This document shows positions 801 through 61,532 of a stretch of 64,000 nucleotides of DNA, piece by piece. Numbering within the stretch: position 1 is the first letter of the stretch; every line of letters begins with the position of its first letter. Under the pieces are notes generated by a model that did not search any database, was not told the origin of the DNA, and was given only the letters and a program-made list of their open reading frames with translations. Made by a program: the position numbers and the translations under genes. Origin of the DNA: a virus (taxonomy: Duplodnaviria > Caudoviricetes); IMG/VR virus record IMGVR_UViG_3300035208_002115. One strand, written 5' to 3'.

Positions 801-1499
801 TTAACCATCAATTATTTTAATGTCTTGTGGTCGTATATTATTATAAATATAATACCCACCTTTCATGTTTGGGTCTTTATAAATTTTCATGTCTTTATAA
901 AATTTATCTGTAATATTTATTTCTAAAAATTTATAATATTTAGTTATGCCTAATAAATTATCATTAAATGATAAATTTTTTATAAAATTTTCTGCACCCC
1001 CTTTATTTAAAGTTATATATATTCTCTCTAAATGAAATGATTTTTTGTTCTTAGATTTCGGTATTATACCAACTTTTTTAATATTATCTAAATTCGCCTC
1101 ATCTGTTACATGATAAACAATATCTGGTTTATAACCTAATATTTTATCGAACTTAGCTTCAAATATAAAATCTATTTTTTTACAGTTTTTTGATTTTAAA
1201 ATATAATCCTCAATATTAATAAATGGATATCCCCTGTTAATATTTGTTTTATAATATTTTATAAATGAGCAATAATAACCAAGTAAATTGTTGACCAAAT
1301 CAAAAATACTTTCTATTTGGTTTATATTTAAAACACCTACCACTGTTAGGAGAAATACACTATCATTATCTTTTTTAATATTATACCAAAATGGTAAATA
1401 CATTAATTTATTATTTAACGTATCAATAGCTTTATCTATTGGATATGTTGTTATTAAACCTTCGTTCTGTCTTAACAGGAAATTTTCAAATGATAACAT
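801..1499 (-). CDS. ADP-ribosyltransferase-fold (Tpt1/KptA-like, H-type) protein with N-terminal tag
   Basis: VYHVT...NIKKVGIIP...RIYIT motif pattern; N-terminus MLSFENFLLRQNE. Confidence 0.65.
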   Translation of the reverse strand: MLSFENFLLRQNEGLITTYPIDKAIDTLNNKLMYLPFWYNIKKDNDSVFLLTVVGVLNINQIESIFDLVNNLLGYYCSFIKYYKTNINRGYPFINIEDYILKSKNCKKIDFIFEAKFDKILGYKPDIVYHVTDEANLDNIKKVGIIPKSKNKKSFHLERIYITLNKGGAENFIKNLSFNDNLLGITKYYKFLEINITDKFYKDMKIYKDPNMKGGYYIYNNIRPQDIKIIDG

Positions 1500-1537
1500 T
1501 TTATTTTATAGATATTTCAATTATATATTATAAATAA

Positions 1538-1568
1538 CAAATCCCCTAAAAAATTAGAGGATTTGTTA
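1538..1568. terminator. Intrinsic terminator-like hairpin
   Basis: acaaatcccctaa/ttagaggatttgt imperfect inverted repeat between genes. Confidence 0.5.
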
Positions 1569-1585
1569 TTTTTTGTTATTTATCA

Positions 1586-4500
1586 CTATATACCAGATGT
1601 TACATTAACCTTTTTAAATGGTCTTAATTTAAACATTATTGTAAATTCAAATGGTCTGTTAGAATTTGTGGGTTCAATGAACACTCTTAATTTCTTGGTG
1701 TGTGTCAACAAATCATTAGTTACTGTTGGGTTTGAAAAATCTCCAGTTGTAGTTCCAGTACCTTGAAATTTGAAATAAATATTAATAGGTATTGTAATAG
1801 ATTCACTTGGTGCTAAATATTTAGTTTTTTCTTGACCAGTCTCCTGTAAATCACTTATATTTGTCACTAAAGGATGAACCGTTGATAAAAAGAATCCAGT
1901 ATAAGATGAATGCGCCCAATTTATTCCATCTATAATATCCCATGTTCCGTTTGTATACCCTGTTGGAGACGCTTTTAATCCAACATTGTGAGATGGGTCT
2001 GACAACGCAGGTGGAACGAGGGGTAACATAAATGCACCAACTAAAGAATTTGTATTATTATAAATTCTTATACCAGTATCTGTATCTGAAAACCATATAA
2101 ATTGATTACTCTGTTGTTTATAAAAGATATTATTTTTATCAACTATTCCAACAGCATGGTCTGTTTGGTAAAATGAATTACCATTTGTTGAACTCAATAT
2201 CGAAAAAGTTCTATCTGATAATAATCCTAATGAATTTTCATTCGCTATATTATCTATTCTGATATAATAACTTGATATTAAATAAATATCATTTTTATAA
2301 ATTCTACCTGTTGTACCACTCTTTGTACCATAATCTTCACACTCAACAACTTGATTTATAGTAGCACCATTACTAATGGCTATTTCATCTGTATTTCTGA
2401 AAAGTAATACCTGAAGTTCACCTTTAGAACGTTTAACAAGTTCTTCAAGAGAATTAATTTTATTAGTAAGGATTGCCAAATATTCTTTTAGCGACAATGA
2501 ATTTCCTGTACTATCCGCATAAGAAGTTTGAATTGTGTCATCTGTATGAGCATAATATTTTTCATTAACATAAAAAGATTCACTTATATGTTTTGTATAA
2601 CCTTTGGCATCCAGTGATGTTTCAAAATTAATTTTAAGTTCGTCATCAGATGCTTGTTTTAAAATAAATTCATTATCCGAAACTATTGATAATTCATCTG
2701 GAAAATCATAAGCTAAAATTTCTGACCAATCACTTTCAAGTGGTGCATTAGGCCAACCAACTTCGGATATAGATTTTATTCTTATTTCTACTTTTTCACC
2801 AGCAGTAACAGAAATATCCAATTGATTAATATTAGGTGTATCAGCATCTGAAACATCTTCTATTTTCCATTTCCATTCTTGTGTTGTTTCATCATAATAA
2901 CGTTTTCTTGCATCCGTTGTTAATGAATTCCAGTTAGAAAAATATCCAGTTTTTGCTGCATTTGAAACTAAGCTATATCCCTCGGTTGTATTTTCTTTAC
3001 CAGATTTAGATGAATATCTATATTCTAATTTGAATTGAACTACTTCTTGGTCACGATATCCTTCAACTTGTCTTGCTTCTGGTATATCCCAAAATCCACG
3101 TAAACGATATTTAGGTTCTACTTTAGCGTTTGTTGCATTACTACTTGTAATTTGTGTTGTTATAGAATTTAAAGTCTTTGTTTCACTATCTAATTGTTTA
3201 TTTAACTTGTTTAATTCATTTTCACTCTGTGACCTTTCAGCAACAGATTTGAATTGTTTAGTTTTCAATTCCGTGTTTTTTAATATTATAGCATCACTTA
3301 ATTGATTTACCCTTGCTTTAGATTTATTCTTTTGAGAATGTAAATCTTTTATTTTTTTAATATCTTCTGTTTCAGTTAAGTGTTTATTTATCTGAACAAC
3401 CTTGAAGTTATTAGAATTTAATTCTGGTACATTAGGAACTAATCCAACATCTGAAGGTATATTTTTTTTAACAAGGTCTTTTAATAAAGTACCATAATCG
3501 AATACAGTATCCAAATAATACTCAGAAAGAGTTATATTAGAGTCTGTACTTAATTTTAATTCATTTGAATAGAAACACGAACCTTTTGACCATAACGATG
3601 AAATAACGTTATTAGAACCGTTAATAGGTTTAAGGAATATGACGTTATACTCATCAAAACCGATTGTCACTTTAGTTTTTTTATCAAGAAGCACACCACT
3701 ATAATATTTAAGTGTGTTTATACCAGTTACAACTGGGTCGTATCCTTCCACCCTTTCTAAAATTACTCTATAATTCGAAGCAGCTATATTAACTTCATGC
3801 ACTTTATAACGAGTAGTTGAAGATTCTTTATTTAAAATAAGTTCATCACCTATTGCCAGTGTTTTAGGATTACCGTCTGTATCATAATAAGTCAATGTAT
3901 TCAAATGATACCATAATTTATTATTAAGAGTATCTTTTTCTTGTTTAAGTACAGAAAATAAACCAAAACTTGTTAATGTATTATAATCGAACTCAAATAT
4001 TTCTTCATCATAATCATTAATATCATTCATATCATTATTCAATACACCAGTATTAGTTGGATTATTATACCAATCTAAAAATTCATGTATATCAATATCA
4101 TTTCTTCCAAGAAAAATGGAACGTAAATCATCCAATGATGCTTGACCTTTAGCTGTTAATGCACCATCAGCATCTTTTGTAAATCTAACAATATATCTTC
4201 TTGATAATACCTTTGAAACATCTGGCTCAACCAACTCCGTTAAATCTATTTCCACACTTAATAGAGGACTCATTAATGATTCAAAGAACCAGTTATTAAC
4301 TGGAACAAACTGACTAACCACATTTAATTTAGATATCGAATTTGGTTCTCTATTTAAATCAACTTGATATACTTTCTTGGTTGATTCGCCATCAATCATA
4401 TAAGTGGTCTTATCTTGAAATTGAGAAAGACGTTTAATATTATTATTTGCTATATCAATTTCCTTTTTTAGGAAACCAACAGTGGGCATATTGAATGTTG

Positions 4501-4657
4501 ATTCTATACCAGCTTCGTTTGTAAGATTAACTTCCACAGCCGAGGCTTCTGATGATACTACATCTTGTATTTTTGTTATTATCTCAACTGAATTTTTATT
4601 AAGTAGAGAAACCTGTTCCAGGAAACTAACCAGAGAATTTTTCTGAAAGTTACTCAT
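1586..4657 (-). CDS. Large hypothetical, probably virion structural protein (coiled coil plus beta-rich domains)
   Basis: 1023 aa ORF with central coiled coil; TAATATATA motif upstream (4701-4709). Confidence 0.55.
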   Translation of the reverse strand: MSNFQKNSLVSFLEQVSLLNKNSVEIITKIQDVVSSEASAVEVNLTNEAGIESTFNMPTVGFLKKEIDIANNNIKRLSQFQDKTTYMIDGESTKKVYQVDLNREPNSISKLNVVSQFVPVNNWFFESLMSPLLSVEIDLTELVEPDVSKVLSRRYIVRFTKDADGALTAKGQASLDDLRSIFLGRNDIDIHEFLDWYNNPTNTGVLNNDMNDINDYDEEIFEFDYNTLTSFGLFSVLKQEKDTLNNKLWYHLNTLTYYDTDGNPKTLAIGDELILNKESSTTRYKVHEVNIAASNYRVILERVEGYDPVVTGINTLKYYSGVLLDKKTKVTIGFDEYNVIFLKPINGSNNVISSLWSKGSCFYSNELKLSTDSNITLSEYYLDTVFDYGTLLKDLVKKNIPSDVGLVPNVPELNSNNFKVVQINKHLTETEDIKKIKDLHSQKNKSKARVNQLSDAIILKNTELKTKQFKSVAERSQSENELNKLNKQLDSETKTLNSITTQITSSNATNAKVEPKYRLRGFWDIPEARQVEGYRDQEVVQFKLEYRYSSKSGKENTTEGYSLVSNAAKTGYFSNWNSLTTDARKRYYDETTQEWKWKIEDVSDADTPNINQLDISVTAGEKVEIRIKSISEVGWPNAPLESDWSEILAYDFPDELSIVSDNEFILKQASDDELKINFETSLDAKGYTKHISESFYVNEKYYAHTDDTIQTSYADSTGNSLSLKEYLAILTNKINSLEELVKRSKGELQVLLFRNTDEIAISNGATINQVVECEDYGTKSGTTGRIYKNDIYLISSYYIRIDNIANENSLGLLSDRTFSILSSTNGNSFYQTDHAVGIVDKNNIFYKQQSNQFIWFSDTDTGIRIYNNTNSLVGAFMLPLVPPALSDPSHNVGLKASPTGYTNGTWDIIDGINWAHSSYTGFFLSTVHPLVTNISDLQETGQEKTKYLAPSESITIPINIYFKFQGTGTTTGDFSNPTVTNDLLTHTKKLRVFIEPTNSNRPFEFTIMFKLRPFKKVNVTSGI

Positions 4658-4752
4658 AATATAAAATTATAATTTTTTAATCACTAAATTTGTGTTTAGA
4701 TATATATTAAAATTATAGGTATATATTAAAAATAAAAATTTTTATTTTAAAT

Positions 4753-5814
4753 ATGAAAAATAAAAATGGATATTGGACTTTTGAGAGGTGTAAAGAAGTT
4801 GCATTATTATGTGATTCAAGAACAGAATTATGTAGTAAACATGTTGGTGCATATTATAAAGCAATAAATAAGAATTGGTTAGATATTATATGTATTCATA
4901 TGTTTAAGATACATAAACCAAAGAATTTCTGGAATTATGATAAATGTCAAGAAGTGTCATTATTATGTTATTCAAGAAGTGATTTTTATATAAAATATAA
5001 CAGTGCGTATCATGCAGCATATAGAAAGGGGTGGCTAAATACGATATGTTCCCATATGAAAAATATTGGTAATAAATATTTTAGATGTATATATGTGTGG
5101 GAATTTGAAGATAATTCGGCATATATAGGATTAACTGGGAATTTAGAAGAAAGAACAAATTATCATAACTATAATAAGAATAGTCCAGTACTAAAATATA
5201 AAAAAATGATTATTAATCCCATATGTAAACAATTATCAGATTACGTGGTTAAAGAAGAAGCACAAATATTAGAAGAATATTTTATTAATAAATATAAACA
5301 GGCTGGTTGGAATATTTTAAATAAAGCAAAAGCTGGTTCATTAGGAGGCTCTAATAAATATTGGACAAAAGAAAGATGTCAAAAGGTTGCTTCAACCTGT
5401 TCATCAAGAAAAGCTTTTCACATTAAATATAGTAGTGCTTACAATTCTGCTCGTTTTAATAAATGGATGAATGAAATATGTTTACACATGAATACCAAAA
5501 GTAGACCATATGGTTATTGGACATATGAACAGTGTGAAAAAAGTGTGTTATTGTGTAAATCGAAAAAAGAATTTAGTAAAAATTTTTACACTGCTTATAA
5601 GTTGTGTCGAAAAAATAAATGGTTAGATAATTTATGTTCACACATGAATATTTTAAGAAACCCGAACGGTTATTGGACAAAAGAAAAATGTAAAGAAATT
5701 GCATTGTTATGTAAATCGAGAAGTGATTTTATTAATAATTATAGTGGTGCTTATAATTCAGCAATTAAAAACAATTTTTATTCTGAAATCGTTGATTTAA
5801 TTGAAAAACATTAA
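4753..5814 (+). CDS. GIY-YIG homing endonuclease with repeated DNA-binding modules
   Basis: CIYVWEF...AYIGLT...R..H GIY-YIG core; about five YWTxExC repeats. Confidence 0.8.
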   Translation: MKNKNGYWTFERCKEVALLCDSRTELCSKHVGAYYKAINKNWLDIICIHMFKIHKPKNFWNYDKCQEVSLLCYSRSDFYIKYNSAYHAAYRKGWLNTICSHMKNIGNKYFRCIYVWEFEDNSAYIGLTGNLEERTNYHNYNKNSPVLKYKKMIINPICKQLSDYVVKEEAQILEEYFINKYKQAGWNILNKAKAGSLGGSNKYWTKERCQKVASTCSSRKAFHIKYSSAYNSARFNKWMNEICLHMNTKSRPYGYWTYEQCEKSVLLCKSKKEFSKNFYTAYKLCRKNKWLDNLCSHMNILRNPNGYWTKEKCKEIALLCKSRSDFINNYSGAYNSAIKNNFYSEIVDLIEKH

Positions 5815-5961
5815 AAATTGAGAAACGGGTTTAATGAATATCAATATTTATCAAACCACAACAACAACCATTCAAAAACTCAATCAAAACAAGGATTATA
5901 TTAACAATATTATAATAGTTTATCATAAACAAAAGAATAGCTGATAAATACTCCAAAATAA

Positions 5962-5989: not shown

Positions 5990-6012
5990 CCTTTATAATA
6001 TTTTCTTCTTTT

Positions 6013-12302: not shown

Positions 12303-12337
12303 TTTTTAATATATAACCTAAAAATAACACATTTAAT

Positions 12338-12580
12338 ATGGAAGATATTATGAAGTTTGAAAATTATACAGAAGAAGAACGTGATAATGGACTTGATTCT
12401 AAAGGTAAACCTATATCAGGTGCTGACAGATATCCAGAATTAGCTTATGTTGCACGACAAATATCTAAAGATGTAATTGCTAAAATAAACACTGAAGCTG
12501 ATAAAGTTGAATCTAAAATGCCATATAAATCACAATTTATATTGGAAGAATTAATAAAAATATTAGAAGAACTGGTGTAA
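12338..12580 (+). CDS. Small tagged protein, putative internal head protein
   Basis: N-terminus MEDIMKFENYTEE; TAATATATA at 12307-12315. Confidence 0.55.
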   Translation: MEDIMKFENYTEEERDNGLDSKGKPISGADRYPELAYVARQISKDVIAKINTEADKVESKMPYKSQFILEELIKILEELV

Positions 12581-23158: not shown

Positions 23159-23839
23159 ATGAATGTAAATGTTATAGAAATTAAATTCGTACTTTATAAT
23201 AGACGAGGATATGAATCTTTATTAAAGTTAAATAGTATAGAAATAAAAGTTACTACTGAATTTAAAAAGACATATATATGTTTAATATATTCAGAATTTA
23301 TTAATTTATTTAAGAATATAGGATTTAATACCGACCTTATTAAATTTCATAATATAAAAGAATCCGAATCAGTATATTTTAGAATAAATAATAAATATAA
23401 AATAGATTATTTAAGAATAATTAATGCCATACCGACAATTACCAGTAATAAACATCATATAACTATTATTTATGGTATAAGTAAGATATATGATGGTAAA
23501 ATATTTGATTATGATATTAGATATGGATATAATAATGGTTATTTTGAACATAATCTAAATGGTTTTTCTTTTATGCAATTATTTCCAAGTGATTATAAGT
23601 CAGTAAAAAAAGATGTATATTATCGTATGTTTAAAATATTTGATATTGAATATTCATTAATTAATTATCACTATTGTATGGTATACAGAGATATCAAGCG
23701 TTCAAAATATTTAACATTGATGTATGAACGTATATTACATAATAAAAGACAGACATATTTTCAATGTACTGGTATTGAATATATTAAAATAATAAGGAAA
23801 TTAAAAATTAATAATTTATTGGATGGTGATGTGTATTAG
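23159..23839 (+). CDS. Hypothetical protein with C-terminal RxxKI motif
   Basis: Ends IRKLKINNLLDGDVY. Confidence 0.6.
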   Translation: MNVNVIEIKFVLYNRRGYESLLKLNSIEIKVTTEFKKTYICLIYSEFINLFKNIGFNTDLIKFHNIKESESVYFRINNKYKIDYLRIINAIPTITSNKHHITIIYGISKIYDGKIFDYDIRYGYNNGYFEHNLNGFSFMQLFPSDYKSVKKDVYYRMFKIFDIEYSLINYHYCMVYRDIKRSKYLTLMYERILHNKRQTYFQCTGIEYIKIIRKLKINNLLDGDVY

Positions 23840-24384
23840 TGTATTTTATCTAAAGATAATATTTTAATATTTGTATCGTCTTTCAAAACAATTTCATTTT
23901 CTACCCAGACCATATCTCGTTGAAATAAACTTCTTGGAACATCAATTTTACTTTCAGTAATTTCTGCTGTTATTAAATATAAATTGGGTTCTTTTAAATG
24001 CCACATTTGTTGTTTAAAATAAGGATTCGTTATTCTTTCAGGATTAGAAAACCATGAATATCCTAAATGTTCTGTGTTTAATTCTTCTGGGGATTTTAAT
24101 ATAATAAATCTATATACTTTAATAATATTAGGTATTTCATTAAAACCATCGGGAAATTTATCTTTGAGTAATAATTTAAAACCATCAACAATATTTTTTA
24201 TAGCTTCTTCTAAATTATCAGCACCATCCCATGCACCACTTGTTGAAAAATCGTTTTCTAACCCCCATTTACCAATATCATATAAATCTTTTTCTGTAAG
24301 TTCTGAGAATGATTCATATTTATGTGGGTTGAATTGTTCATTCAACCACTCGTTTAAAGAAAATATAAATTTTCTGGATTTCAT
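23836..24384 (-). CDS. R-S-E type ADP-ribosyltransferase-like protein with N-terminal tag
   Basis: KVYRF...LGYSWFS...ENEIVL; N-terminus KFIFSLNEWLNE. Confidence 0.6.
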   Translation of the reverse strand: MKSRKFIFSLNEWLNEQFNPHKYESFSELTEKDLYDIGKWGLENDFSTSGAWDGADNLEEAIKNIVDGFKLLLKDKFPDGFNEIPNIIKVYRFIILKSPEELNTEHLGYSWFSNPERITNPYFKQQMWHLKEPNLYLITAEITESKIDVPRSLFQRDMVWVENEIVLKDDTNIKILSLDKIH

Positions 24385-24492
24385 TATCAAAAATATTTTT
24401 AATTTATATATATATATATTTTTGAAAAAATTTCAAGATAATATTAAAAAAAAACAAATGTTTTTAATATATAAAAAAAATAATAATATATT

Positions 24493-25049: not shown

Positions 25050-25868
25050 TTATATTAAATTTAATTTATAACCAGTGAAATATTTTAAATAATTATAACA
25101 AGAAACACCATTACCATCTTTATCATTTATTTTACCATTTGATGATAAAAAATTTTTAACTGCTTTTTGACCTACTAAATGAGATGCTGCTAACATTCCA
25201 GATTCGGTTATTTTAATACCACCAATAGTTTGACCGATATATTTGTAATAATTTCTTAAATAATATTTATTATTTTTTAATAATTTTATTACATCTCTAT
25301 TTTGTTCGTCTTCTGGATACAAGTTAGGATTATTAACGAATGTTGCTGAATCAATTTGATTTTTTTTTATATCTTTAAAAGCATGTTTTCCGAATTGATA
25401 TTTACCAACGTATCCTTTTTTAGCAGATAACCAATTATTTCTTGATTCTCTATATGCTAATTTATCGAGAAATTCTAATGTTTCATCTGAAGATGCATCC
25501 ATATATGATATGTCTTTGTATGGAGTTAATCCAAAATCTATTAATTTATTTACATAATCCTTAATTTCGTTTTCGATGAAATCTATTCTTTTTAAATCAG
25601 ATGAGGCTATTTTAGATGTTGAAATTGATATTAAGAATATTAATAAAATTCTTTTATAAGGTAATTTAGATTTAAAAATTTTAGTGACAACCTGTTTAAA
25701 AAATTCTTTTATTTGTGACTTTGTTTTTAATTTATCAAACATATTTTTAATTTTTTCTTTCATAAATTCTAAGGTATTATTACCTTCTAATATATAATCA
25801 AAATCGTTTAAATTGTTTAATAAATTTATATTCTCGTTAAATGAATTCCAATTATGAATATAAGTCAT
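25050..25868 (-). CDS. Lysozyme-fold (lytic transglycosylase-like) hydrolase with N-terminal tag
   Basis: RESRNN catalytic Glu, GYVGKYQFG, ITESGMLAASHLVG; N-terminus YIHNWNSFNE. Confidence 0.75.
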   Translation of the reverse strand: MTYIHNWNSFNENINLLNNLNDFDYILEGNNTLEFMKEKIKNMFDKLKTKSQIKEFFKQVVTKIFKSKLPYKRILLIFLISISTSKIASSDLKRIDFIENEIKDYVNKLIDFGLTPYKDISYMDASSDETLEFLDKLAYRESRNNWLSAKKGYVGKYQFGKHAFKDIKKNQIDSATFVNNPNLYPEDEQNRDVIKLLKNNKYYLRNYYKYIGQTIGGIKITESGMLAASHLVGQKAVKNFLSSNGKINDKDGNGVSCYNYLKYFTGYKLNLI

Positions 25869-25946
25869 TAAAAATATTTTTATTTATATATATTATTTTT
25901 AAGATTCGTGAATTAAATATATACCTATACAAAATAAAAATAAAAT

Positions 25947-29100: not shown

Positions 29101-29491
29101 AGTAATAGATGATTTCATGGAAATCAGATTAGATTATTATGATAAAAGAAAAAATTCTGTAATTGATAAATTCAAAAGAGATATACAGATACTTAATAAC
29201 AGGTGTAATTTTATAGATTTAATAATTAAAAATAAAATCGTTATATCCAATAAAAATAAAGAATTTATTGAACAGGAATGTATAAAAAATAATTTGGATA
29301 AAATAGATGATTCGTATGATTATCTATTAAATATGGTGATATATTCTCTTTCCAAAGAAAAATATGATAATTTAAAAAATCAATTAGCTGAAAAAATTAA
29401 AGAATTGGAAGAATATTCTAAAAAAACTTTACATGAACTTTGGCTGGATGATTTATCGGAGTTAAAAAGAGAACTTAAAAAATTAAATTAA
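26198..29491 (+). CDS. Single-chain type IIA DNA topoisomerase (fused ATPase-TOPRIM-WHD)
   Basis: EIITNASD, GGRNGIGAK, TEGDSA, PLKGK, DADHDGSHI, YYKGLGT, DGFKP, YHHG, SASRY catalytic Tyr. Confidence 0.97.
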   Translation: MVKKKKIEEQYKKLSQREHVLQRSDTYIGSINSERRMVFTVDNIDNFENLKIVKKEINYNAGLIKIFDEIITNASDHSVKTGRVKSIKIEIDNNKISVWNDGDGIPVVIHKDEKVYVPELIFGHLLTGENYDDTEQRIGGGRNGIGAKACNIFSKEFIVETADGKNYYKQVFTDNLSSDKKGKLPKPHIRVSSKKFTKISFLPDYERFGFIELIDDIKSVMIKRTIDIAAYNPNVKVYFNNNLISIKSFKDYMKLFMLDNHEIIYEKINDLWEIGVMKTFSDSFEQISLVNGLATLQGGTHVNHAINQITSKLKSSLSRGNKFEINPNDIKSKIFLFLNTKVFNPEFDSQVKEILNTKISSFKDIEISDNFIKKILKSDITQEIIDYIELKEQLALQKAVKNKNGRTVKVRKLDDANRAGTKDSRMCLLFLTEGDSALSSCLRGFSVTGRDYYGAFPLKGKPLNVRDIAVKKILEDEEIKGIISALGLEIGKKYTNTSELRYGKVVLFTDADHDGSHIKGLLINLFETFFPYLLEADFIYEFVTPIVKVKKGAVVKYFYKLNEYRRWKETVNVDNWFVKYYKGLGTIEPHESKEFFKEIDKHLIRFNYRNPEITKDLIDMAFRKNRAEDRKNWLLKYKPNNEVDKFGKKTYYDSFINDELIEFSMADNIRSIPSVIDGFKPTHRKILYTLNKKNYKDEVKVGLLSGAIIEATSYHHGPQSLEQTIINMAQNFVGSNNINLLIPSGEFGTRSMGGKDSSASRYIFTNKVPITDYIFRKEDNAVLEYLDDDGYVIEPKFYIPIIPMVLVNGAEGIGTGWSTLVPKYNIVDLVDYIEKKIKGSANPRKNINPYYNKFKGKIYLDKDRYVTEGTFELHNDRLKITELPIGLWYDKFYFKLNELIDTKVILNYTKHSTDENVNIIIQLPKESLKLFTPNYILKIFDLTSYINNSNMNLFDKNDKIKLYGDIYEVIDDFMEIRLDYYDKRKNSVIDKFKRDIQILNNRCNFIDLIIKNKIVISNKNKEFIEQECIKNNLDKIDDSYDYLLNMVIYSLSKEKYDNLKNQLAEKIKELEEYSKKTLHELWLDDLSELKRELKKLN

Positions 29492-29519
29492 TATATAACA
29501 TAAAAATATTTTTATTTTA

Positions 29520-30143
29520 ATGATAAAAGGGTTTTATGAATTTATTAATGAAGGTAAGAATTACCAATTATTTAGAGGTGTTAGTGGTATTAAACATATA
29601 TTAGAAAATGAATTCATAGAGAATAGTGGTGTATTCGATTCTCCACTTAGAAAGGATGTTACAGGCGTAAAATATGGTATATCTGCTACCAGAAACTTTC
29701 ATACGGCAGTCGAATATTCTCATGATTGTGTTATTGAATTTGATGTTCCTAAATTAACGGATAAATACAGATTATTACCTTTTTCTGAGAATCCAGACTA
29801 TTTTTTATATTATATAAAAAAATATGGACGTGGTGAAGCTTTTAAAAAAATGAGAGTTGGTAAAAACAAAAAAGATTCAGAAAATTTTTGGAAAGTTAAA
29901 ACCGATAAGGGTGCTATGGATTTTGATATAGCTGAAGAAATAATAGTTACCAATAAAATATCAATAAAATATATCAAAAAATTATATTTAAATAAAGAAA
30001 CTTATAATAAAATAAAGAATTTAACTGATAAATTGGGTATAGAATGTGTAGTTATATCTGATATGATAAATAAAAAATATATTCATACTACCGATAAATA
30101 TAGGGAATTAATGAAAAAAAGAGAACTTACGAAACAGAACTAA
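29520..30143 (+). CDS. ADP-ribosyltransferase-like protein with N-terminal tag
   Basis: LFRG...GISATR...AEEII; N-terminus MIKGFYEFINE; TAATATATA at 29489-29497. Confidence 0.55.
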   Translation: MIKGFYEFINEGKNYQLFRGVSGIKHILENEFIENSGVFDSPLRKDVTGVKYGISATRNFHTAVEYSHDCVIEFDVPKLTDKYRLLPFSENPDYFLYYIKKYGRGEAFKKMRVGKNKKDSENFWKVKTDKGAMDFDIAEEIIVTNKISIKYIKKLYLNKETYNKIKNLTDKLGIECVVISDMINKKYIHTTDKYRELMKKRELTKQN

Positions 30144-30929: not shown

Positions 30930-31334
30930 TTATAAATTTTCTTCTTGAACATCATCTAAATATTGTTGGTATTTAGGATTAATTGTAATATTTAATTTCT
31001 TAGCTATATTTGGGTAATGTAATAAATCGCCATTATTTTCAGCATAATATAATCTATCAGCTTCTATTAATTCTTCTATTTCATCTTCTCTGGTCGGTAT
31101 AATATCTCCATTATAACCTCTATAATATACATCATATATGGACATTTCGTCTTCATCTTTCGTTGGATTTGACATTACTAATCCGACCAAACCATGATTT
31201 CCCATGTCTTTCGCCCACACTAAATCACCAATATCATATTTTTTAGGAGCAACATCAATATTTTCAGTATTCTCAATTTCAATATTCTCAACTATACTAA
31301 ATTCTTCAAACATTCTTATATGTTTCATATACAT
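30930..31334 (-). CDS. Tagged protein with SH3/PWWP-like barrel
   Basis: MKHIRMFEEF tag; YDIGDLVWAK...GLV...YDV. Confidence 0.5.
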   Translation of the reverse strand: MYMKHIRMFEEFSIVENIEIENTENIDVAPKKYDIGDLVWAKDMGNHGLVGLVMSNPTKDEDEMSIYDVYYRGYNGDIIPTREDEIEELIEADRLYYAENNGDLLHYPNIAKKLNITINPKYQQYLDDVQEENL

Positions 31335-31389
31335 AAATAATTTTCTATTATATATTAAATATTAATTTAAAAATATTTATATTTGACTT

Positions 31390-46991: not shown

Positions 46992-47037
46992 AAAAATGTT
47001 TTATTTTTTAATATATATAAAAAAAACATATTATAAA

Positions 47038-47337
47038 ATGAAAAGTTTTCTGGATTTTGTAAATGAAAAAGAAATAATGATAAAAGTTGAGTTAGATGTT
47101 GTTGAAACGGAAACATCTGTCGATAGTGATGATGTTGAAGATAATATTTTAACAATAATGAACTCTCTCGAATTTAAACAATGGATATCTAATCTTACCG
47201 AAGAAGAAATAAAAAACATTGAAATTGGAGCTGCTGATTTTTATAAATCCGAACCTCAAAATGCAGAATATTTACGTAAATGTTTTTTTGTAGAAAAATT
47301 TTTAGAACAACAATCAAATGAGGATAAAACTATTTGA
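47038..47337 (+). CDS. Small tagged acidic protein
   Basis: MKSFLDFVNE at ATG 47038, after TAATATATA at 47009-47017. Confidence 0.55.
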   Translation: MKSFLDFVNEKEIMIKVELDVVETETSVDSDDVEDNILTIMNSLEFKQWISNLTEEEIKNIEIGAADFYKSEPQNAEYLRKCFFVEKFLEQQSNEDKTI

Positions 47338-47839
47338 ACAATTTAGTAAGAAGTGGTATCATGGTTCTAAAGAAACTTTTTCTGATTTTAAATTAAAAAA
47401 AGGAACTCTTTTAGATTATAATTATATAGCACCTATATTTTTAACGTCTGATTTAGAATTTGCTGAAGCACATGCTGGATATAAAACCCCACATATTTAT
47501 GAAATTGAAGTGTTGACAGATAAATTATTTGATTATAAAAAAATACCAAATGGATATGACTTGTTTAGATTCTTAGAAAAAGATATTAAAAAAGATGATG
47601 ATAAAGATTACACCCTTGGTAAAAAGTTATATTTTGATATCGAAAATAAGTCAGATGATGTAGATAGAATGTATGGTGGTATATGTTCTGGTGAATATAG
47701 TGAATTAGAACAAGTTTGGTTTTATGATTGGTTGAAAAAAAATGGTTATGATGGTGCATATGTGAGAGAAACTGGTATCGTTAATTTATTTATTTTTGAC
47801 ACCAAAAAATTGAAGATAATAAAAACAATAACACAGTAA
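47318..47839 (+). CDS. ADP-ribosyltransferase-like protein (polyvalent-protein type) with N-terminal tag
   Basis: WYHGS...FKL...IFLTSD..FA...GYDG; N-terminus MRIKLFEQF. Confidence 0.65.
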   Translation: MRIKLFEQFSKKWYHGSKETFSDFKLKKGTLLDYNYIAPIFLTSDLEFAEAHAGYKTPHIYEIEVLTDKLFDYKKIPNGYDLFRFLEKDIKKDDDKDYTLGKKLYFDIENKSDDVDRMYGGICSGEYSELEQVWFYDWLKKNGYDGAYVRETGIVNLFIFDTKKLKIIKTITQ

Positions 47840-47841: not shown

Positions 47842-48381
47842 ATGAAATCTTTTATATGTTTTATTAATGAAAAACGAGTAGTTAGAGAAGAAAGAATTGA
47901 AATTTTAAGAGATTCCAAATATATAGTAGTTGCACCATTATCTGAAATAGCAAGTTGTAAATACGGTGCTTATACTCATTGGTGTACATCTAATCCGCAT
48001 TCTGGTGCATGGTCAGATGATTATGTTAATGGTGAAAACCAAAATAAGTTAATCTATATTATACAACGAAATTATAACATGACTCCAGAAAATAAAGAGA
48101 AATCTGAAGAATATTATTATCTAAATCAGAAAATAGAAAATCAAGATTTTGATGACGAAGAAGATAAAGAAAGAACACAAGAAAGATTTAGTGACTTAAA
48201 TGATGATGAAGAATCATTAGATTTTTCTAAAATTGCAATAGAATATAATAATAGAAATAAAAGTTTTGTCATCTGGAGTGCCAATAATATTCCAATATCT
48301 GAAACTCGGTATTATGACTTGGGTAATTTGCCGATAGATGACTATGTTATAGATAGAATAAAAGATTTTTGTAAAACTTAA
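47842..48381 (+). CDS. Tagged protein with ASCxYGxxTxWC motif
   Basis: MKSFICFINE; VAPLSEIASCKYGAYTHWCTS. Confidence 0.55.
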   Translation: MKSFICFINEKRVVREERIEILRDSKYIVVAPLSEIASCKYGAYTHWCTSNPHSGAWSDDYVNGENQNKLIYIIQRNYNMTPENKEKSEEYYYLNQKIENQDFDDEEDKERTQERFSDLNDDEESLDFSKIAIEYNNRNKSFVIWSANNIPISETRYYDLGNLPIDDYVIDRIKDFCKT

Positions 48382-50943: not shown

Positions 50944-52314
50944 TTACCATTTTTTTCGGTCATCATTCACTCTAAAATTGGATATTTTATCTAAATTATC
51001 TTCGGACGGTAATGGTGAAAAACCAAAACGTTTTTTAATATTATTTCTACCATATGCCCAGTTATAATCTTCTTCACCATCTTTTTTGACTCCATATACC
51101 ACACCACCTTTATCATTGGATGACCAAACATAATATGCATGTACGTTCCATTTAACACCTTTATCATCTAATATATCATAATAAGCTTCTTTGGTGTCGT
51201 GTGTAAATGCGCCAACACTCAATGGGTTATTAGTAGCTATAAGATAATCCTCATCTGTTACAATGATATCATCTTTTTCAAATTTGTAATTCTTAGGTAC
51301 AACTACGATATATTCTCGTTCTTTTTTATTACTAACATAGTCTTCTTTGTCAAATAGTTCTTCAGTTAATTCAGAAGAAATTATATTTATTTTTGAAGTT
51401 TCAACTCGAAGAACAAAACCCTCTTTATTTGAGAAGTATTTAGCTACTGGTAAACTGGCAGTGAAAGAAATGAATTTCCCATCAGTCAACTTATGAATAC
51501 CATTCTTTAGAATGTAATCAAACAACAAATCATACTTTTCTTGCATGGCTTTGTTATGCTTAAATTTCGAATCTGAATGATATTTAGTCATATCTTTCCA
51601 TTGTTGACCAATAGCTTTTTCGGCTTTTTGCCACATTGTTCCTCGGATTCCTCTGTAAATATATTTTGGTAACTTATGAGTTTTTTCTTTTATACCTTTT
51701 TTCAAAATATAATGATTATAAAATATGTATAACCAAATATATTGTAGTATATTATTTACTTTTTTAATTCCTTCTTCTGTCCTAACAGTGAATGCTGTTG
51801 TTCCAGCTACTGTTACGAATCTTTTCATTACATCTTTATTTGAATATTGGTCACGTTCTGTTTCTTTAGGGTCAGTATTTTTTATTTTTTCTAAATCTCT
51901 GTATTGACTTAATAAACCAAGACCATTAACTGACATCGTATTTCCATATATGTTCCTTGAATTATAACCACCAGAAGTTAATATTAGAAATCGAGTCTGA
52001 GTTTTTAAATCTTTGAAAATATTTGTGTCTTTTTTTGGAATTTTATAATTAAGTTCGGCTATTGAATGTATTATACTTTTAGATAGAGAATCTTTCCAAT
52101 GTAATATCATATGCTCTTTAATCTTGATATATATTTCCATATTCATACCCATTAAAGAAATTAATTCTTCAATAGTATTGAAACCAGTTAATACGGATTC
52201 ACGCAATTTGTTTCTAAAATCAGTCCAATCTGAATATTGAATATTTCCTTCAAATTTACCAAACATAGATTCATTTATTGAGTTAAACTTATTATAATTA
52301 AAGAGATGTTTCAT
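50944..52314 (-). CDS. R-S-E ADP-ribosyltransferase (Alt/Mod-like) with N-terminal tag
   Basis: IYRGI...FISFTAS..VA..F...EREYIV; N-terminus MKHLFNYNKFNSINE. Confidence 0.7.
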   Translation of the reverse strand: MKHLFNYNKFNSINESMFGKFEGNIQYSDWTDFRNKLRESVLTGFNTIEELISLMGMNMEIYIKIKEHMILHWKDSLSKSIIHSIAELNYKIPKKDTNIFKDLKTQTRFLILTSGGYNSRNIYGNTMSVNGLGLLSQYRDLEKIKNTDPKETERDQYSNKDVMKRFVTVAGTTAFTVRTEEGIKKVNNILQYIWLYIFYNHYILKKGIKEKTHKLPKYIYRGIRGTMWQKAEKAIGQQWKDMTKYHSDSKFKHNKAMQEKYDLLFDYILKNGIHKLTDGKFISFTASLPVAKYFSNKEGFVLRVETSKINIISSELTEELFDKEDYVSNKKEREYIVVVPKNYKFEKDDIIVTDEDYLIATNNPLSVGAFTHDTKEAYYDILDDKGVKWNVHAYYVWSSNDKGGVVYGVKKDGEEDYNWAYGRNNIKKRFGFSPLPSEDNLDKISNFRVNDDRKKW

Positions 52315-52371
52315 TAAAAATTTAAATATTTTTCTTTATATATTTAATTCTAAAGAAAAATTTATTTGAAA

Positions 52372-56213: not shown

Positions 56214-56825
56214 TTATATCCTATGTTTTGGTTCATTTATAGGTATATCAAAAATGTTTTTGTCGGGTGTGTTCGGTTTATCTCCAATTTTCCAGAGAAT
56301 GTCGATAAAATTATATAGAAATGTTATAGAAAACGTTTTTTCAGATATATCCATCACATGATAACTTAATCTATTTTCTGATATAGATTTTAGTAAATTT
56401 TCTTTGAATACAACAGCATATATAACATCACCATTTTTATCTAAGATGTCAAGATTAAAAATTGGTATATATTGAGTATCATTATTTAAATAATATTCAT
56501 TTAATATTTCCACTAACATAAAATAATTAATATGAGCATCTACGCTTCTGAATGTTATATCAAGTTCTCTTGTAAAATTATCAAACACAGACCCAGCATT
56601 TTTCCAATGTACCTCTTTACCCCTTTTTAATATTTGGGTTGATGTGTTAAATTGGATGGATGGGAATGTTATTTCTTTTATTGTACTATTAATATAATCC
56701 AATACACCATCATATGGTATAAAATTTTTATCCATAAAAATAAGCATACGTTCTTCTATTTCTTTTGGAATGAAATCACTCGGAAAATTGAATACGAATT
56801 GGTTATTTTGTGATGATAGTCTCAT
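56214..56825 (-). CDS. Conserved hypothetical, probably tail/baseplate protein
   Basis: Tail-tube-like beta pattern (ELDITFR...FSITFLYN); co-transcribed with a large ORF behind a TAATATATA motif. Confidence 0.4.
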   Translation of the reverse strand: MRLSSQNNQFVFNFPSDFIPKEIEERMLIFMDKNFIPYDGVLDYINSTIKEITFPSIQFNTSTQILKRGKEVHWKNAGSVFDNFTRELDITFRSVDAHINYFMLVEILNEYYLNNDTQYIPIFNLDILDKNGDVIYAVVFKENLLKSISENRLSYHVMDISEKTFSITFLYNFIDILWKIGDKPNTPDKNIFDIPINEPKHRI

Positions 56826-56828
56826 ATG

Positions 56829-59072
56829 TTATAATATATCTTTTAATTTTATTGTTTTTGAAATACCATTAGCAACATATTTTATTAAAGTTGGTGAATT
56901 CTTTGTTGTTTGTGTAGTGTTCAATTTATTTAATTTTTCATCAATGGCCTTTTTAACTTGACTTTCTGTTATAGTATTATTTGTTTTAGCACTTTGGTTT
57001 TGACCATCATAAATATCTATTCTTATTACTTTACTAATAAATTCGGTTTTCTTTTCTATAACAGTAACTTTCAATAAATGAACAGCATTTATGTAATATA
57101 CATAATCATTATAAATCCACGTTTTAATACCAAGTGTTTTAATATATGTTTCAAAATCAGCTTTTACGATTTTCTTTTTAATAAAAATTAATAAATTAAA
57201 ATAATTTTTATTATTTTTTATTTGATTATTTGGTGTTGTTAAAGGTACGTTTACTGCTTTGAACTGAGAGTTTTGACTGACTTGTTTATCTAATTCTAAT
57301 TTTTTTATTTTTTGATTTAATAAACTAACAGTTTGGTTATATTTTTTATTTGTTGCTTCCAATTGTTTTTTATAAATATCAACACCAATACCAGTTCCAG
57401 CAGAAGTTACTGGTGACTTTGTAGTATTTTTAATATCTACAAATTTGATGTTTTCATAAAAATCATATTTTCCAGAATATAATAGTGTTCTACTATCATT
57501 TGAGTATAATATCAAATAGAAATTTTTAAATTTTTTATTGTATATACTTTTTATCGTTGCAATATCACTCTCTTTAATTTTAAATACCACATCTCCATTT
57601 TTAAAATCATTTTCATTAGATTGAGCAAAATAATCTATTTCCAATGTTTTAGCATCGGATTTAAATACCAGTTTAAGTTTAGCATTGTTTGATATTGTAA
57701 ATAAATCATAGGGTACAGGCTCACCCGTTTTATTATCAACAGCCGTTGCTAAACTAAATTTAACTATGTTATCAAACGGGGTAATAACAATGTTTAATAA
57801 ACCATTTGATTTATATTCACTATTAATAGAAACAGTACTATTAACCAGTAATTTATATTTATCATATAAAACTGGGTATGGAACTTTTGTTATACTGGTT
57901 GTATCATCATTTGAAGTGCCATTAATTATAATTGTTTCTGGTTTAGCTTTATAAATTTTAGGCTTAAATACAGAACTGTCCAGATTAATTCGGGATAATG
58001 TTTTACCATATTTAAATATACTTTTTGTTAATCCAATTGAAGCATAACGTTCAATTTGATTATTATTCACTAAATCTTTGACATTCATTTGAACATCAAT
58101 AGCTGCTGTTGTATTTGAAAACCGTATAATTGGTCTGTATAAAAGTTTTTGAGAAAAGTTTTCATTTACAACAAATGTCTGAGGATACCCACTTTGAATG
58201 TTTTCTTCAAATAATGTAATAACATATTCTAATTCAATACGTTTTCCTTTAGCTTCAACATCGCTTACGAAATCATCCAAATTTTCATTAGTACCTTTGT
58301 ATATTCCATATATTTCAAAAAAATCTCCCTGAGTTGATTCAACTATTTCCACTCCCAGTGATTGGTATTCTGGTTGTTGTGGTACTGATGTTTCAAATGT
58401 TTCACCTAATCTGTAATATAATTTATTTAAAACAACTTCACCTGTTACAATGTATGAAAAATCTATAAAAATTGGAGCTGATTGACTTAATCCAACACCG
58501 TTTGTTAAATTATAATTTATAGTATTAGGTATTACAGTATTCGAAGTATCATTAATTATTCGGTCTTTGGCTATATTATATATAGATGGAATATCTAATG
58601 TAATACTTTTTCCCCATAACTTTTCATCATAAGTAAAGGGTGTTTCTAAATTAATCATACCAATATTATCATCGAGAGCTATATCATAATAAAATTTACA
58701 AATTGAATGTATGTTTTCGTTTGCATAATCCAACGTGTAAATATCTAAATGAAATCCCCTATATGTGTTGAAAACATAATTAACAGGAAAATATAATTTT
58801 ATTTTATCATGTGATAAAGGATTACCTGCATAATTTTGTTTTTTTAAGAAATTAAAAGATTCAGTATTAAACTGTGAATATTTCTTAACTACTTTATCGA
58901 CACAAAATAATGTATGGTCTTCACTATTAAGTGGAAGAAATGATACATAATCTCTTGTACCTAAGTTTAAATTGGAAAGGACTGAATAATTTTCATTTTT
59001 TATATTATTATCATCGTATGTCCATTCAAGTAAAACATTAATGTCAAGCTTTATCCTTTTAGTAATCGCCAT
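56829..59072 (-). CDS. Large hypothetical, probably virion protein
   Basis: 747 aa; TAATATATA at 59095-59103. Confidence 0.55.
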   Translation of the reverse strand: MAITKRIKLDINVLLEWTYDDNNIKNENYSVLSNLNLGTRDYVSFLPLNSEDHTLFCVDKVVKKYSQFNTESFNFLKKQNYAGNPLSHDKIKLYFPVNYVFNTYRGFHLDIYTLDYANENIHSICKFYYDIALDDNIGMINLETPFTYDEKLWGKSITLDIPSIYNIAKDRIINDTSNTVIPNTINYNLTNGVGLSQSAPIFIDFSYIVTGEVVLNKLYYRLGETFETSVPQQPEYQSLGVEIVESTQGDFFEIYGIYKGTNENLDDFVSDVEAKGKRIELEYVITLFEENIQSGYPQTFVVNENFSQKLLYRPIIRFSNTTAAIDVQMNVKDLVNNNQIERYASIGLTKSIFKYGKTLSRINLDSSVFKPKIYKAKPETIIINGTSNDDTTSITKVPYPVLYDKYKLLVNSTVSINSEYKSNGLLNIVITPFDNIVKFSLATAVDNKTGEPVPYDLFTISNNAKLKLVFKSDAKTLEIDYFAQSNENDFKNGDVVFKIKESDIATIKSIYNKKFKNFYLILYSNDSRTLLYSGKYDFYENIKFVDIKNTTKSPVTSAGTGIGVDIYKKQLEATNKKYNQTVSLLNQKIKKLELDKQVSQNSQFKAVNVPLTTPNNQIKNNKNYFNLLIFIKKKIVKADFETYIKTLGIKTWIYNDYVYYINAVHLLKVTVIEKKTEFISKVIRIDIYDGQNQSAKTNNTITESQVKKAIDEKLNKLNTTQTTKNSPTLIKYVANGISKTIKLKDIL

Positions 59073-59180
59073 TAATTCATTGATTAATTTTTAATATATA
59101 TTAAATTAGAAATATCTACCTTATATATTAAAAAATAAATCTTATCAATTTAATATATAAATAAAAATAAAAATAATTTT

Positions 59181-60142
59181 ATGGCACTTTTAGTATCTTC
59201 AGGAATAACCATATTTAGAGATATAAGTTTAGAAACTCTTTATATTAGGTTGGATATAAATTTCATACAATCTGGTAATGAAATAGTGATAACACCACAC
59301 CCATATACATCTAAACAAGCTTTTAAAGAAAGTAGATTCAATAATGAATTAATTATGAGAGGTTTCGACCCCATTTCAATTGAATATAATTATGAAATAG
59401 ATGGTGATATGATATTACATGCACACAATAGTTTCGTTGAATATGTTAATAATAATTTAACAGATTTAATACCAATCAACTCTACAATAATTATTGATTT
59501 AGATTAAAAATATTTTTATTTTATGAAAGTAAAAAAATTTGAAATGTTCATGAATGAGAGTATTGCTTCAATATTCAATTATACCAGAACATATAGCGAT
59601 GATGTTAGTAGGTCACTTATTGATGTTATTATGAGAGCTAATAAAGTTTCTGAAAAAAGTTTCAACCAAGTCGATTCTATTATGGCTAATGTCAAAGAAT
59701 TATTAACTAACAATAATGAAGCTAAAGATGTTATAGCTGAATTTGAATCCGAAAATAAAAGAGCAGAGTTTTGTGCCGAATATATTTACCATTATATTAT
59801 AAATAAAAAATAAAATTTATGTATTCATTTGAACAATTTCAATTACTGGAGAAACGTAATCGGTATCAAGAAAATAAAAAATCTTTACACCTGAGTAGGA
59901 AAATATCAGATAAAATGAAAGAATTGATAGAACCATTGATGAATACTGGTTCTAAAGTTAGAAATGGTTTTGTGACAGGACTTAAAAAGCCTTTTGGTTT
60001 ATCTAAAAAGATGGGTGGTATTGGTCTTGGTGCTGATAAGGATGGATTTTTTGTTTATACTCATAGAGCATCCAGTGAAAGATACGCTTCTCCAGAAGCA
60101 ATTCCTGAAAAGGATATAAAATTTATACAAAGTACAGGATAA
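59181..60142 (+). CDS. Three small putative late genes (59181-59507, 59523-59813, 59819-60142), the last two tagged
   Basis: TAATATATA at 59151-59159; MKVKKFEMFMNE; MYSFEQFQLLE. Confidence 0.6.
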
Positions 60143-60708
60143 TGGAAGAATTAAAATATATAAAAACATTTGAAACGTATGTTCATTCAAATTATAATGT
60201 TGATATGAACAATCCTATTGATTTATTAAAAGACTATCCAAATTTATTTTATTCAGAACCAACACCTGAAATGTTGAAAGAATTTAATAAAATAATAAAT
60301 CCAAATAAAAATCAGTATCAACCAAAAATTAGACCCGTGAAATTATATCATGGTACATCGGCTAATATTGATATTTTAAAAGATGGGTTATTAACTACAA
60401 AAATGAAAACTAAAAAATCTATGCAATCTCAAACTGGATATGTTTATTTATCTATTTTTCCAGATATGGCTAAAACTTTTGGGGATATAGCATATCCATA
60501 TGATGATATTGTGGTTTATGAAGTTGTAGTGCCAATTTATTTATTACAAGCTGATAAAGACCAATTAAGAAATCAACGTGCATACGCAGGTAGGGACACT
60601 GGTGATTCATTAGCTGAAAGTGCATTATATGGTCATGGTTTCAGGGTTAAAGGTGATATACCACCTTATATGATTAGTGTGTATAAAAAATATCCGAGAA
60701 ACAAATGA
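60142..60708 (+). CDS. ADP-ribosyltransferase-like protein with N-terminal tag
   Basis: LYHGT...ILKDGL...VYLS...A..F; LKYIKTFETY. Confidence 0.65.
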   Translation: MEELKYIKTFETYVHSNYNVDMNNPIDLLKDYPNLFYSEPTPEMLKEFNKIINPNKNQYQPKIRPVKLYHGTSANIDILKDGLLTTKMKTKKSMQSQTGYVYLSIFPDMAKTFGDIAYPYDDIVVYEVVVPIYLLQADKDQLRNQRAYAGRDTGDSLAESALYGHGFRVKGDIPPYMISVYKKYPRNK

Positions 60709-61532
60709 TTACCAAACAAGAAGGTTTAGAAAGTTTAATGGATAGTGCCAAAAGACATGGTTTTACTTTTGAAAAAGACAGTAAAAATAATATTATAGTG
60801 TATCACGGTACAAGTGAATTTGCTGCTAAACAAATTGAAGCAACTAAATATTTCAAGGACGGTTTCTTTTTTCATAGTGATGAAGGTAGTTTTGAAAGTG
60901 ATTTCGATAATGTGTGGAATTATGCTACAATTAGAGCTGGACAAAAAGGTGAAAAAGGAAACGGTGAAGTTTTAACTATGGTAGTTGACCCAAGATGTTT
61001 ATTAATTAATGGTGCTGGTGAAACGGAATCGGATGGCGACCTATACTTAGATACAGATGATGTATGGAAAACTAAAGAATATCTAAATAAAAATATAAAA
61101 GAGGTTTCTAAGAATCCCGAATTAAGAACAAAAGAAGAAATAAAAAAGGTTATTGATGATGATTTAAATGTAATAGTTACTGATAAATTCGCTGAGTGGA
61201 TATTACAAACAGTTAGACATTATCTGTTTACTAAGAAAATTTCTTTAGATGGTGTTATTACTGCTATTTGTGGTGACTTAAACTATTTTTATGATATAAG
61301 TTATGATTATAAAGATTTTTTGGATGACCCAGACCCAGAAATGGTCGATGATATGAGTAAAATAAACACATTCAAAGATTTTATATCAACATGGGGTTAT
61401 ACAGATGAAAATTTTAAAGTATTACAAGATGTTTTATGGATGTTAAAAGACGATTTGAAAGTAAAACATATCGCTAATGTGATAACAGAAAACTTAAAAT
61501 ATATAAAACGATTTAAATATTTTAAAAGTTAA
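60705..61532 (+). CDS. ADP-ribosyltransferase-like protein with the tag at its C-terminus
   Basis: VYHGTS...FFF...YA...GE; ends TENLKYIKRFKYFKS. Confidence 0.55.
   Translation: MITKQEGLESLMDSAKRHGFTFEKDSKNNIIVYHGTSEFAAKQIEATKYFKDGFFFHSDEGSFESDFDNVWNYATIRAGQKGEKGNGEVLTMVVDPRCLLINGAGETESDGDLYLDTDDVWKTKEYLNKNIKEVSKNPELRTKEEIKKVIDDDLNVIVTDKFAEWILQTVRHYLFTKKISLDGVITAICGDLNYFYDISYDYKDFLDDPDPEMVDDMSKINTFKDFISTWGYTDENFKVLQDVLWMLKDDLKVKHIANVITENLKYIKRFKYFKS

Follow-up and report, generated by a model that had tools for sequence, protein, structure and literature searches.

The stretch of DNA analysed here (the window, 64,000 nucleotides of the virus record IMGVR_UViG_3300035208_002115) corresponds to bases 349370-413369 of a single 675,678-bp viral contig of 27% G+C, labelled G000. 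It carries a dispersed set of genes whose products begin with a common short peptide, M-(K)-x-(I/L)-K-x-[FY]-x-x-[FY]-[IL]-N-E, which resembles the capsid targeting sequence (CTS) of the phage T4 internal proteins. Window and contig coordinates are kept apart throughout, the latter being prefixed by G000. A preliminary description of the window had proposed that this peptide is a portable packaging tag and had quoted 13 N-termini as examples, all of which were found in the sequence where it had placed them. The genes are listed below, with a slash marking the predicted cut behind Glu; the late-type motif is the promoter-like sequence TAATATATA or a close variant of it.

801..1499, minus strand: tagged gene, MLSFENFLLRQNE/G, whose aromatics occupy the T4 positions (residues 4 and 7); late-type motif at 1522-1530
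12338..12580, plus strand: tagged small gene, MEDIMKFENYTEE; late-type motif at 12307-12315
23836..24384, minus strand: tagged gene, MKSRKFIFSLNEWLNE/Q; late-type motif at 24404-24421
25050..25868, minus strand: tagged gene, MTYIHNWNSFNE/N; late-type motif at 25887-25895
29520..30143, plus strand: tagged gene with a predicted ADP-ribosyltransferase fold, MIKGFYEFINE/GKNYQLFRG; late-type motif at 29489-29497
30930..31334, minus strand: tagged gene, MYMKHIRMFEEFSIVE/N; late-type motif at 31349-31357
47038..47337, plus strand: tagged gene, first of a three-gene tagged operon, MKSFLDFVNE/K in the T4 register; late-type motif at 47009-47017
47318..47839, plus strand: N-terminus resembling the tag and lacking a Glu downstream, MRIKLFEQFSKKWYHGS; weak ART-PolyVal match (E 3e-4) that falls short of the family cut-off
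47842..48381, plus strand: tagged gene, MKSFICFINE/K
50944..52314, minus strand: tagged gene, MKHLFNYNKFNSINE/S (...YNKFNSINE/S); late-type motif at 52337-52345
59523..59813, plus strand: tagged gene, MKVKKFEMFMNE/S, in an operon behind the late-type motif at 59152-59161
59819..60142, plus strand: tagged gene, MYSFEQFQLLE/K, in an operon behind the late-type motif at 59152-59161
60142..60708, plus strand: partial tag, MEELKYIKTFETY..., with the aromatic pair and no Glu at the cleavage position
60705..61532, plus strand: not a family member; N-terminus untagged, with a C-terminal resemblance (NLKYIKRFKYFKS at the end of the protein) that has no Glu and scores below threshold

The N-terminal tag across the genome

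Genome-wide counts were drawn from a crude gene set of 1093 open reading frames (ORFs). The pattern [FYW]xx[FYW]xNE occurs 52 times in this proteome, and 29 of the occurrences begin within the first 15 residues, where 4.2 would be expected. A position weight matrix derived from these matches, with the consensus (I/L)-K-x-[FY]-x-x-[FY]-[IL]-N-E-N and a threshold of 8, scored 78 N-termini at or above that value, versus 3-6 (3-8 in another tally) of the internal, near-C-terminal or shuffled N-terminal segments of the same proteins. Checked genome-wide against shuffled N-termini, the motif is therefore not at chance level, and at internal positions matches are at least tenfold rarer than at the N-terminus. 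The threshold undercounts, as several paralogues scored as untagged visibly carry the tag by eye, while a loose regular expression found 107 N-termini over a background of about 40. We estimate that 80-100 of the ORFs are carriers (~8%, about one in twelve), 11-13 of them in the window. The family that had been described from the window is thus real, and its scale had been understated, as the tag is both genome-wide and clade-wide.

The composition of the tag is consistent across its carriers. Of 80 tags, 69 have Phe or Tyr at matrix position 0 and 63 at position +3, and the first aromatic falls on residue 7 in 42 of 87 tags, on residue 5 in 20 and sometimes on residue 4, lying between residues 4 and 8 in 75. 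Glu is at its canonical position in 55 of the 87 (65 when variable spacing is allowed); among the 55, P3 is Ile or Leu in 40 and P1' is Asn in 17, versus a background of 7.8%. In T4, the internal proteins IPII and IPIII begin MKTYQEFIAE and IPI begins MKTFKEF, and amber-suppressor mutagenesis of the IPIII signal showed that targeting relies mainly on residues 4 and 7, and that residues 8 and 10 are needed for processing (PMC9026906). The four most conserved positions of the tag described here (aromatic, aromatic, I/L and Glu) are precisely these determinants of targeting (Y4, F7) and cleavage (I8, E10). In two of the quoted genes, 47318-47839 and 60142-60708, the aromatic pair is present without a downstream Glu. 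The latter product is possibly targeted but uncleaved, or its tag degenerate.

Synonymous codons at the conserved tag positions are used in their genome-wide proportions, so it is the peptide, rather than the RNA, that is under selection. An occurrence of the motif at the C-terminus of 60705-61532 had also been put forward. Besides its missing Glu and its low score, C-terminal enrichment is unclear in general: nine of 43 non-N-terminal matches fall in the last 20 residues, versus about five expected, and with so weak an excess this example was rejected. A terminator-like hairpin lies 3' of this gene, at 61534-61556.

The tag is also tied to a particular class of genes. The sequence TAATATATA or a close variant stands 20-25 nt upstream of the starts of the capsid, terminase, sheath, gp25 and protease-scaffold genes and is missing upstream of nine of the ten replication/recombination genes; judging from the genes downstream of it, we infer that the motif marks a late class. 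The 100 nt ahead of the gene contain it in 44% of the N-tagged genes, 20% of other genes and 3% of the genes with the C-terminal tag described below (Fisher p = 2e-7), and at the operon level 80% of tagged genes lie behind it, versus 46% of the others. The co-occurrence of tag and promoter that had been noted in the window is borne out: eight window genes have the motif or a variant 20-25 nt upstream of the ATG, and the rest are in operons behind 47009-47017 or 59152-59161.

Two further features of these upstream regions were observed. Many genes carry an A/T palindrome, AAAAATATTTTT (or AAAATAT), between the late-type motif and the ATG, without a Shine-Dalgarno-like sequence (window 29498-29519, 25869-25886, 24385-24403, 59497-59522 and others). 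It is present in about one third of the late-motif genes, tagged or untagged, and the AAAATAT leader was rejected as a hallmark of tagged genes, not being specific to them. Separately, the late-type motifs at 59089-59100 and 59152-59161, oppositely oriented within one 110-bp intergenic region, look like a divergent promoter pair for the gene of 747 codons at 56829-59072 (minus strand) and the operon starting at 59181 (plus strand).

Protease, scaffold and capsid protein

The genes of the head module are found outside the window, on the minus strand at G000 543-550 kb: the portal, an 801-residue fusion of protease and scaffold, and the major capsid protein, with a tagged gene immediately after it. 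The protease domain matches phrog_207 (head maturation protease) with an E value of 1e-26 and the Pfam family Peptidase_S80 with 27.4 bits (cut-off 23.4). This domain, at the N-terminus of the fusion, aligns with T4 gp21 in hhalign (E 3e-5), the motifs around the catalytic His and Ser being matched (GEFDHP to GELNHP; VSSRAAG to VSSRGLG), and the top three fold matches in the PDB of its AlphaFold2 model are T4 gp21, 5JBL. Taking the evidence together, the phage encodes a gp21-type prohead protease. The link to gp21 comes only via hhalign and the fold search: phmmer and a protease-domain profile run against PDB sequences returned no protease, and a genome search with PF03420 (the T4 gp21 family) gave no match, with its controls equally silent, which makes that search uninformative.

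The scaffold part of the fusion is built of units that resemble the core of the tag. Residues 303-463 consist of 12 tandem 14-residue units of the form NxDxSIxYSEYLAE, and one further unit precedes them at 261; the tag-like core (YSEYLAE/N) is counted 13-14 times in tandem. The pattern [FYW]xx[FYW][LIVM]xE occurs internally 68 times in the proteome, and 14 of these occurrences are in the scaffold protein, with a spacing of 14 residues. When only the core of the matrix is used, the protease-scaffold is the top protein of the proteome; with the full matrix, including the K-rich lead-in, the repeats score nothing, the core alone being common to both. The repeats are kept, with 11-14 per protein, in relatives that are 46-62% identical, and are also present in LR756501. 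Beyond the fusion, a 77-residue ORF at G000 415016-415249 (plus strand), about 1.6 kb past the window end, begins MTYSEYIVEHLDNSIAYAEYITEQL, equivalent to two scaffold-repeat units in a free-standing mini-protein.

In the major capsid protein, about 44 residues from the Met and just before a variable region, there is a block W-M-S-E-Y-A-E-F-H-S-I-N-E/N. It is conserved in 50 distinct relatives, except for a variant, ...AEMHQMNE/N, in this phage and its two closest relatives, and the -NE/N end is found in all of them. The end of the block is the predicted end of the propeptide, where a T4-like maturation cut would be expected; the cut site of T4 gp23, FGSFLTE65/A66, has the same pattern. The tag of the window gene 50944-52314 has the same long-spacer form as this capsid site (YAEFHSINE/N). 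Considering the three kinds of sites, P3 is L/I in the scaffold repeats and I/M at the capsid site, and Asn at P1' is common to tags, scaffold repeats and capsid site. Covariation of the tag spelling with the capsid and scaffold sites was sought across relatives, where these sites proved invariant within the clade, leaving the contrast with T4 (Ala versus Asn at P1') as the only informative one.

A further ATG, in frame and 23 codons ahead of the conserved start, is present in the capsid ORF (G000 543309-545015, minus strand). The upstream extension contains a hairpin and a late-type motif, and therefore the true start of the capsid protein is the second Met (codon 24).

Tagged proteins: bodies, turnover and domains

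When the tag is removed, 87 tagged proteins fall into 80 BLAST components, in agreement with the proposal that unrelated proteins share it; the sole paralogue group of five members among them includes the window gene 23836-24384. In two related genomes, of 508 and 476 kb, homologues exist for only 6% of the tagged proteins, versus 19% of other genes, and these relatives have 31 and 39 tagged proteins of their own, respectively. By this comparison, the tagged bodies are fast-evolving. The genes also cluster, with 23 adjacent pairs versus 6.8 expected. The gene right after the capsid gene codes in many relatives for a conserved tagged protein of 129 residues, and this genome has an unrelated tagged gene in its place. 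The conserved protein (loci L041-L116) reads MIKNFNSFNE/SKKDKFPNIQKLEIEGF.V.VGKDAK, its body motif resembling, by eye, NFACT-R/DUF814-type domains.

A second tag, RxxK[IL]xx[IL] at the C-terminus, was found by regular expression on 93 ORFs genome-wide. The two tags are almost mutually exclusive, with only two proteins carrying both, of 87 and 93. As given above, 3% of the C-tagged genes have the late-type motif; none of 91 has a homologue in the two relatives.

The Pfam and PHROGs scans of about 42 tagged proteins gave only two confident domains: ART-PolyVal (E 2e-22) in the tagged protein at G000 175706-176746, and SprT-like (E 8e-14) in that at G000 326336-327079. About 95% of the cargo is orphan, and there the word effector is a candidate label only. 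The body of 47842-48381 matches an internal part of longer phage proteins, phrog_28193 and phrog_17056. A muramidase had been counted among the tagged proteins, and none was found in these scans. ADP-ribosyltransferase (ART) cargo is represented by the ART-PolyVal domain and the predicted fold of 29520-30143, besides the weak match on 47318-47839.

For 29520-30143 we obtained an AlphaFold2 model with a predicted local distance difference test score (pLDDT) of 84, from a 118-sequence alignment. In this model the tag is a short helix (residues 5-10) followed by coil before the first strand. Most of the listed matches from a Foldseek search against the PDB, including the top nine, are of ADP-ribosyltransferase fold (DarT, Tpt1, SopF, pertussis S1, scabin), with a best match that is modest (E 4e-4, template modelling score 0.46), and weak Pfam hints on the homologues agree with the ADP-ribosyltransferase superfamily. 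The body of this protein is thus predicted to have an ADP-ribosyltransferase fold. Its homologues conserve an R/H (in LFRG or LYHG), S55, R58 and E139-E140, whose catalytic role is putative.

The tag is kept in this family. M1, F5, F8 and E11 are invariant among orthologues; in the alignment of 118 homologues, only six residues are nearly invariant, the tag Glu among them, and the consensus, MIxFKxFLxE, is nearly the T4 sequence. A profile search with the family retrieved 161 cluster representatives, and a tag-like N-terminus is present in 125 of 149. One homologue has its tag internally, behind an extra 150-residue domain. Moreover, two metagenomic polyproteins, P0022 (2290 residues) and P0038 (1200 residues), contain 6-10 ADP-ribosyltransferase-like modules homologous to 29520-30143, each module starting right after [LI][ND]E/G.

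Proposed mechanism, alternatives and known systems

The previous results lead us to regard the tag as probably a T4-type CTS, acting in both targeting and cleavage, on some 80-100 different, putatively late proteins; that the cargo is then delivered into the host as effectors we hold to be likely as well, with somewhat less confidence. The portable packaging tag of the preliminary description finds in silico support in the T4 determinants, the protease, the motif in capsid and scaffold, the promoter and the ART-fold cargo, and has lost its C-terminal example and its muramidase. Docking, cleavage, packaging and injection are all proposed on the basis of sequence and predicted structure. Mechanistically, the two aromatics would dock the nascent cargo on the prohead scaffolding core, itself 13-14 tandem copies of the motif fused to the protease. 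Once the shell is assembled, the gp21-type protease would cut behind Glu (hydrophobic-x-Glu) at three kinds of sites: the tags, the scaffold repeats and the capsid propeptide end. Cargo would thereby be released within the head, the scaffold cut to pieces and the shell matured, and the freed proteins, including the ADP-ribosyltransferase-fold and SprT-like enzymes, would probably exit with the DNA at infection like T4 Alt and the internal proteins. T4 internal proteins co-purify with the scaffold protein gp22 (PMC9026906). Both the make-up of the scaffold, as a concatemer of tag-like units, and the presence of such a unit at the end of the capsid propeptide suggest that cargo may be recruited as pseudo-subunits of the scaffold core. 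A more far-reaching version, which we put forward tentatively, at slightly less than an even chance, is that the megaphages of this clade (including LR756501-4 and LR745206, 634-735 kb) load about 100 different proteins per head, each cargo carrying one scaffold-repeat unit, the scaffold a polymer of the tag, and a single protease freeing all of them. If true, the full first-wave arsenal of an uncultured phage could be read from its genome sequence alone.

Several observations weigh against this interpretation. The tagged proteins are acidic on average, with a median isoelectric point (pI) of 5.5, versus the basic, DNA-binding internal proteins of T4. About 25% of the tags have no Glu at the cleavage position. 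The scaffold repeat reproduces only the 7-9-residue core of the tag, without its K-rich lead-in, and the confidence of the protease model is low (pLDDT 50). The lateness of TAATATATA is deduced from the genes that it precedes, and BLAST found no gp55 homologue. Finally, about 90 cargo species would be far above any studied phage, T4 having about four and phiKZ about 19 processed head proteins.

Some of these same points would suit a tag that serves as a docking handle for a different partner (a chaperone, a regulatory protease or a membrane site), unrelated to the capsid and similar to T4 by convergence. Such a handle would account for acidic cargo and for the quarter of tags without a cleavable Glu, and the C-terminal tag of this genome is found on about as many proteins. 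We nevertheless consider it unlikely, as the tag coincides with the four determinants established by experiment in T4, is found again in the scaffold and at the capsid propeptide end, is tied to the promoter motif of structural genes, and is nearly exclusive with the C-terminal tag (two shared of 87 and 93). The recurrence in the scaffold can also be turned around: a scaffold that is itself built of the motif is presumably degraded and expelled, and most cargo is orphan and without an effector signature, so the tag might be a mere site for the prohead protease, activating or degrading late proteins whose products are not kept or injected and act as assembly helpers or scaffold-like fillers. 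In T4, however, the signal causes Alt and the internal proteins to be retained and ejected (PMC9026906); the ADP-ribosyltransferase-fold and SprT-like cargo fit enzymes delivered to the host, and bodies that change this fast are typical of proteins in an arms race. We regard a cleavage-only role as distinctly improbable.

The motif could, at least in principle, be a by-product of AT-rich composition, of an RNA-level preference at translation initiation or of paralogy, since at 27% G+C the residues K, N, I, F, Y and E are all common. This was tested and rejected, and we give it hardly any weight: shuffled N-termini and internal windows give 3-8 matches versus 78, both synonymous codons appear at tag positions in genome-wide proportions, the bodies are unrelated, and structural late genes with the same leader have no tag.

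As a T4-type CTS, the tag shares with its T4 counterpart an N-terminal location, a length of 10-14 residues with the core aromatic-x-x-aromatic-[I/L]-x-Glu, carriers that are unrelated and fast-evolving, and a phage with a gp21-type protease; like T4 Alt, one cargo is predicted to have an ADP-ribosyltransferase fold. It differs in scale, with 3-4 carriers in T4 and ~80-100 here (8% of the proteome), and in being usually 1-3 residues longer, with the first aromatic at 5 or 7 instead of 4, as well as in having Asn where T4 has Ala at P2/P1' and cargo that is acidic on average. The scaffold, protease-fused and with 13-14 tandem tag-like units, differs from gp22, which has neither. Furthermore, the T4 CTS is known by experiment and the present tag from sequence alone. 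Presence of the T4 signal on diverse proteins of T-even phages was already known (PMC3012670, PMC9026906), and what is new here is the scale of tag use and the tag-repeat scaffold; in the literature, we found no paper joining "capsid targeting" with "huge phage", and none on megaphages.

Cleavage after Glu is itself widespread, being common to the proteases of T4, phiKZ and SPN3US (PMC9026906). The large phages phiKZ, 201phi2-1 and SPN3US have many head-internal proteins cut after Glu by a diverged gp21 homologue (PMC7411985, PMC5694885, PMC9026906), as is predicted for the present one. Their gp175-type (S80) proteases belong, as does the protease here, to Pfam Peptidase_S80. The phiKZ-type proteases have a small residue at P3 (S/A/G-x-E), whereas P3 is I/L here, preceded by the common aromatic pair; with I/L in 40 of 55 tags, the phiKZ/SPN3US-type cleavage motif was rejected as a description of the tag. 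To our knowledge, no common N-terminal targeting peptide has been described for phiKZ-type head proteins. A different parallel is found in the polyvalent proteins of phages and conjugative elements, presumed to be injected, for which ART-PolyVal and MPTase/SprT-like domains are reportedly hallmarks (Iyer et al. 2017). ART-PolyVal and SprT-like are the only confident Pfam domains on tagged proteins, and P0022 and P0038 chain 6-10 modules in the manner of polyvalent proteins; the modules here differ in being mostly separate small genes, each with its own tag, and not one giant multi-domain protein.

Proteins carried in with phage DNA decide the first seconds of infection, and they are known for a handful of cultured phages. 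If the tag works as in T4, the packaged set could be listed for an entire uncultured clade with genomes of 0.5-0.7 Mb, with about 90 proteins in the present phage and 31 and 39 in two of its relatives; such a set would exceed anything known and may help to explain the large genomes. The tag-repeat scaffold offers a concrete and testable account of how capsid targeting sequences may be recognized, and the tag itself would serve as a simple annotation rule for hundreds of orphan genes in published huge-phage genomes.

Regarding the genomic setting, the closest relatives of the topoisomerase II and head genes are in the uncultured huge phage genomes LR756501-4 and LR745206 (634-735 kb). A megablast search with 20 kb of the window found no match among phage records. 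The contig encodes T4-type genes for replication and recombination (gp41, gp43, gp44, UvsX, UvsW, gp46/47) and for the virion (gp4, gp17, gp18, gp20, gp23, gp25), and the phage is therefore a distant T4-group relative of very large size. BLAST searches of the genome with T4 gp55, gp45, gp62 and gp22 found no homologue. The T4 gp43-like DNA polymerase is seemingly split into two genes about 120 kb apart, at G000 539510-540991 (plus strand) and G000 659109-660566 (minus strand).

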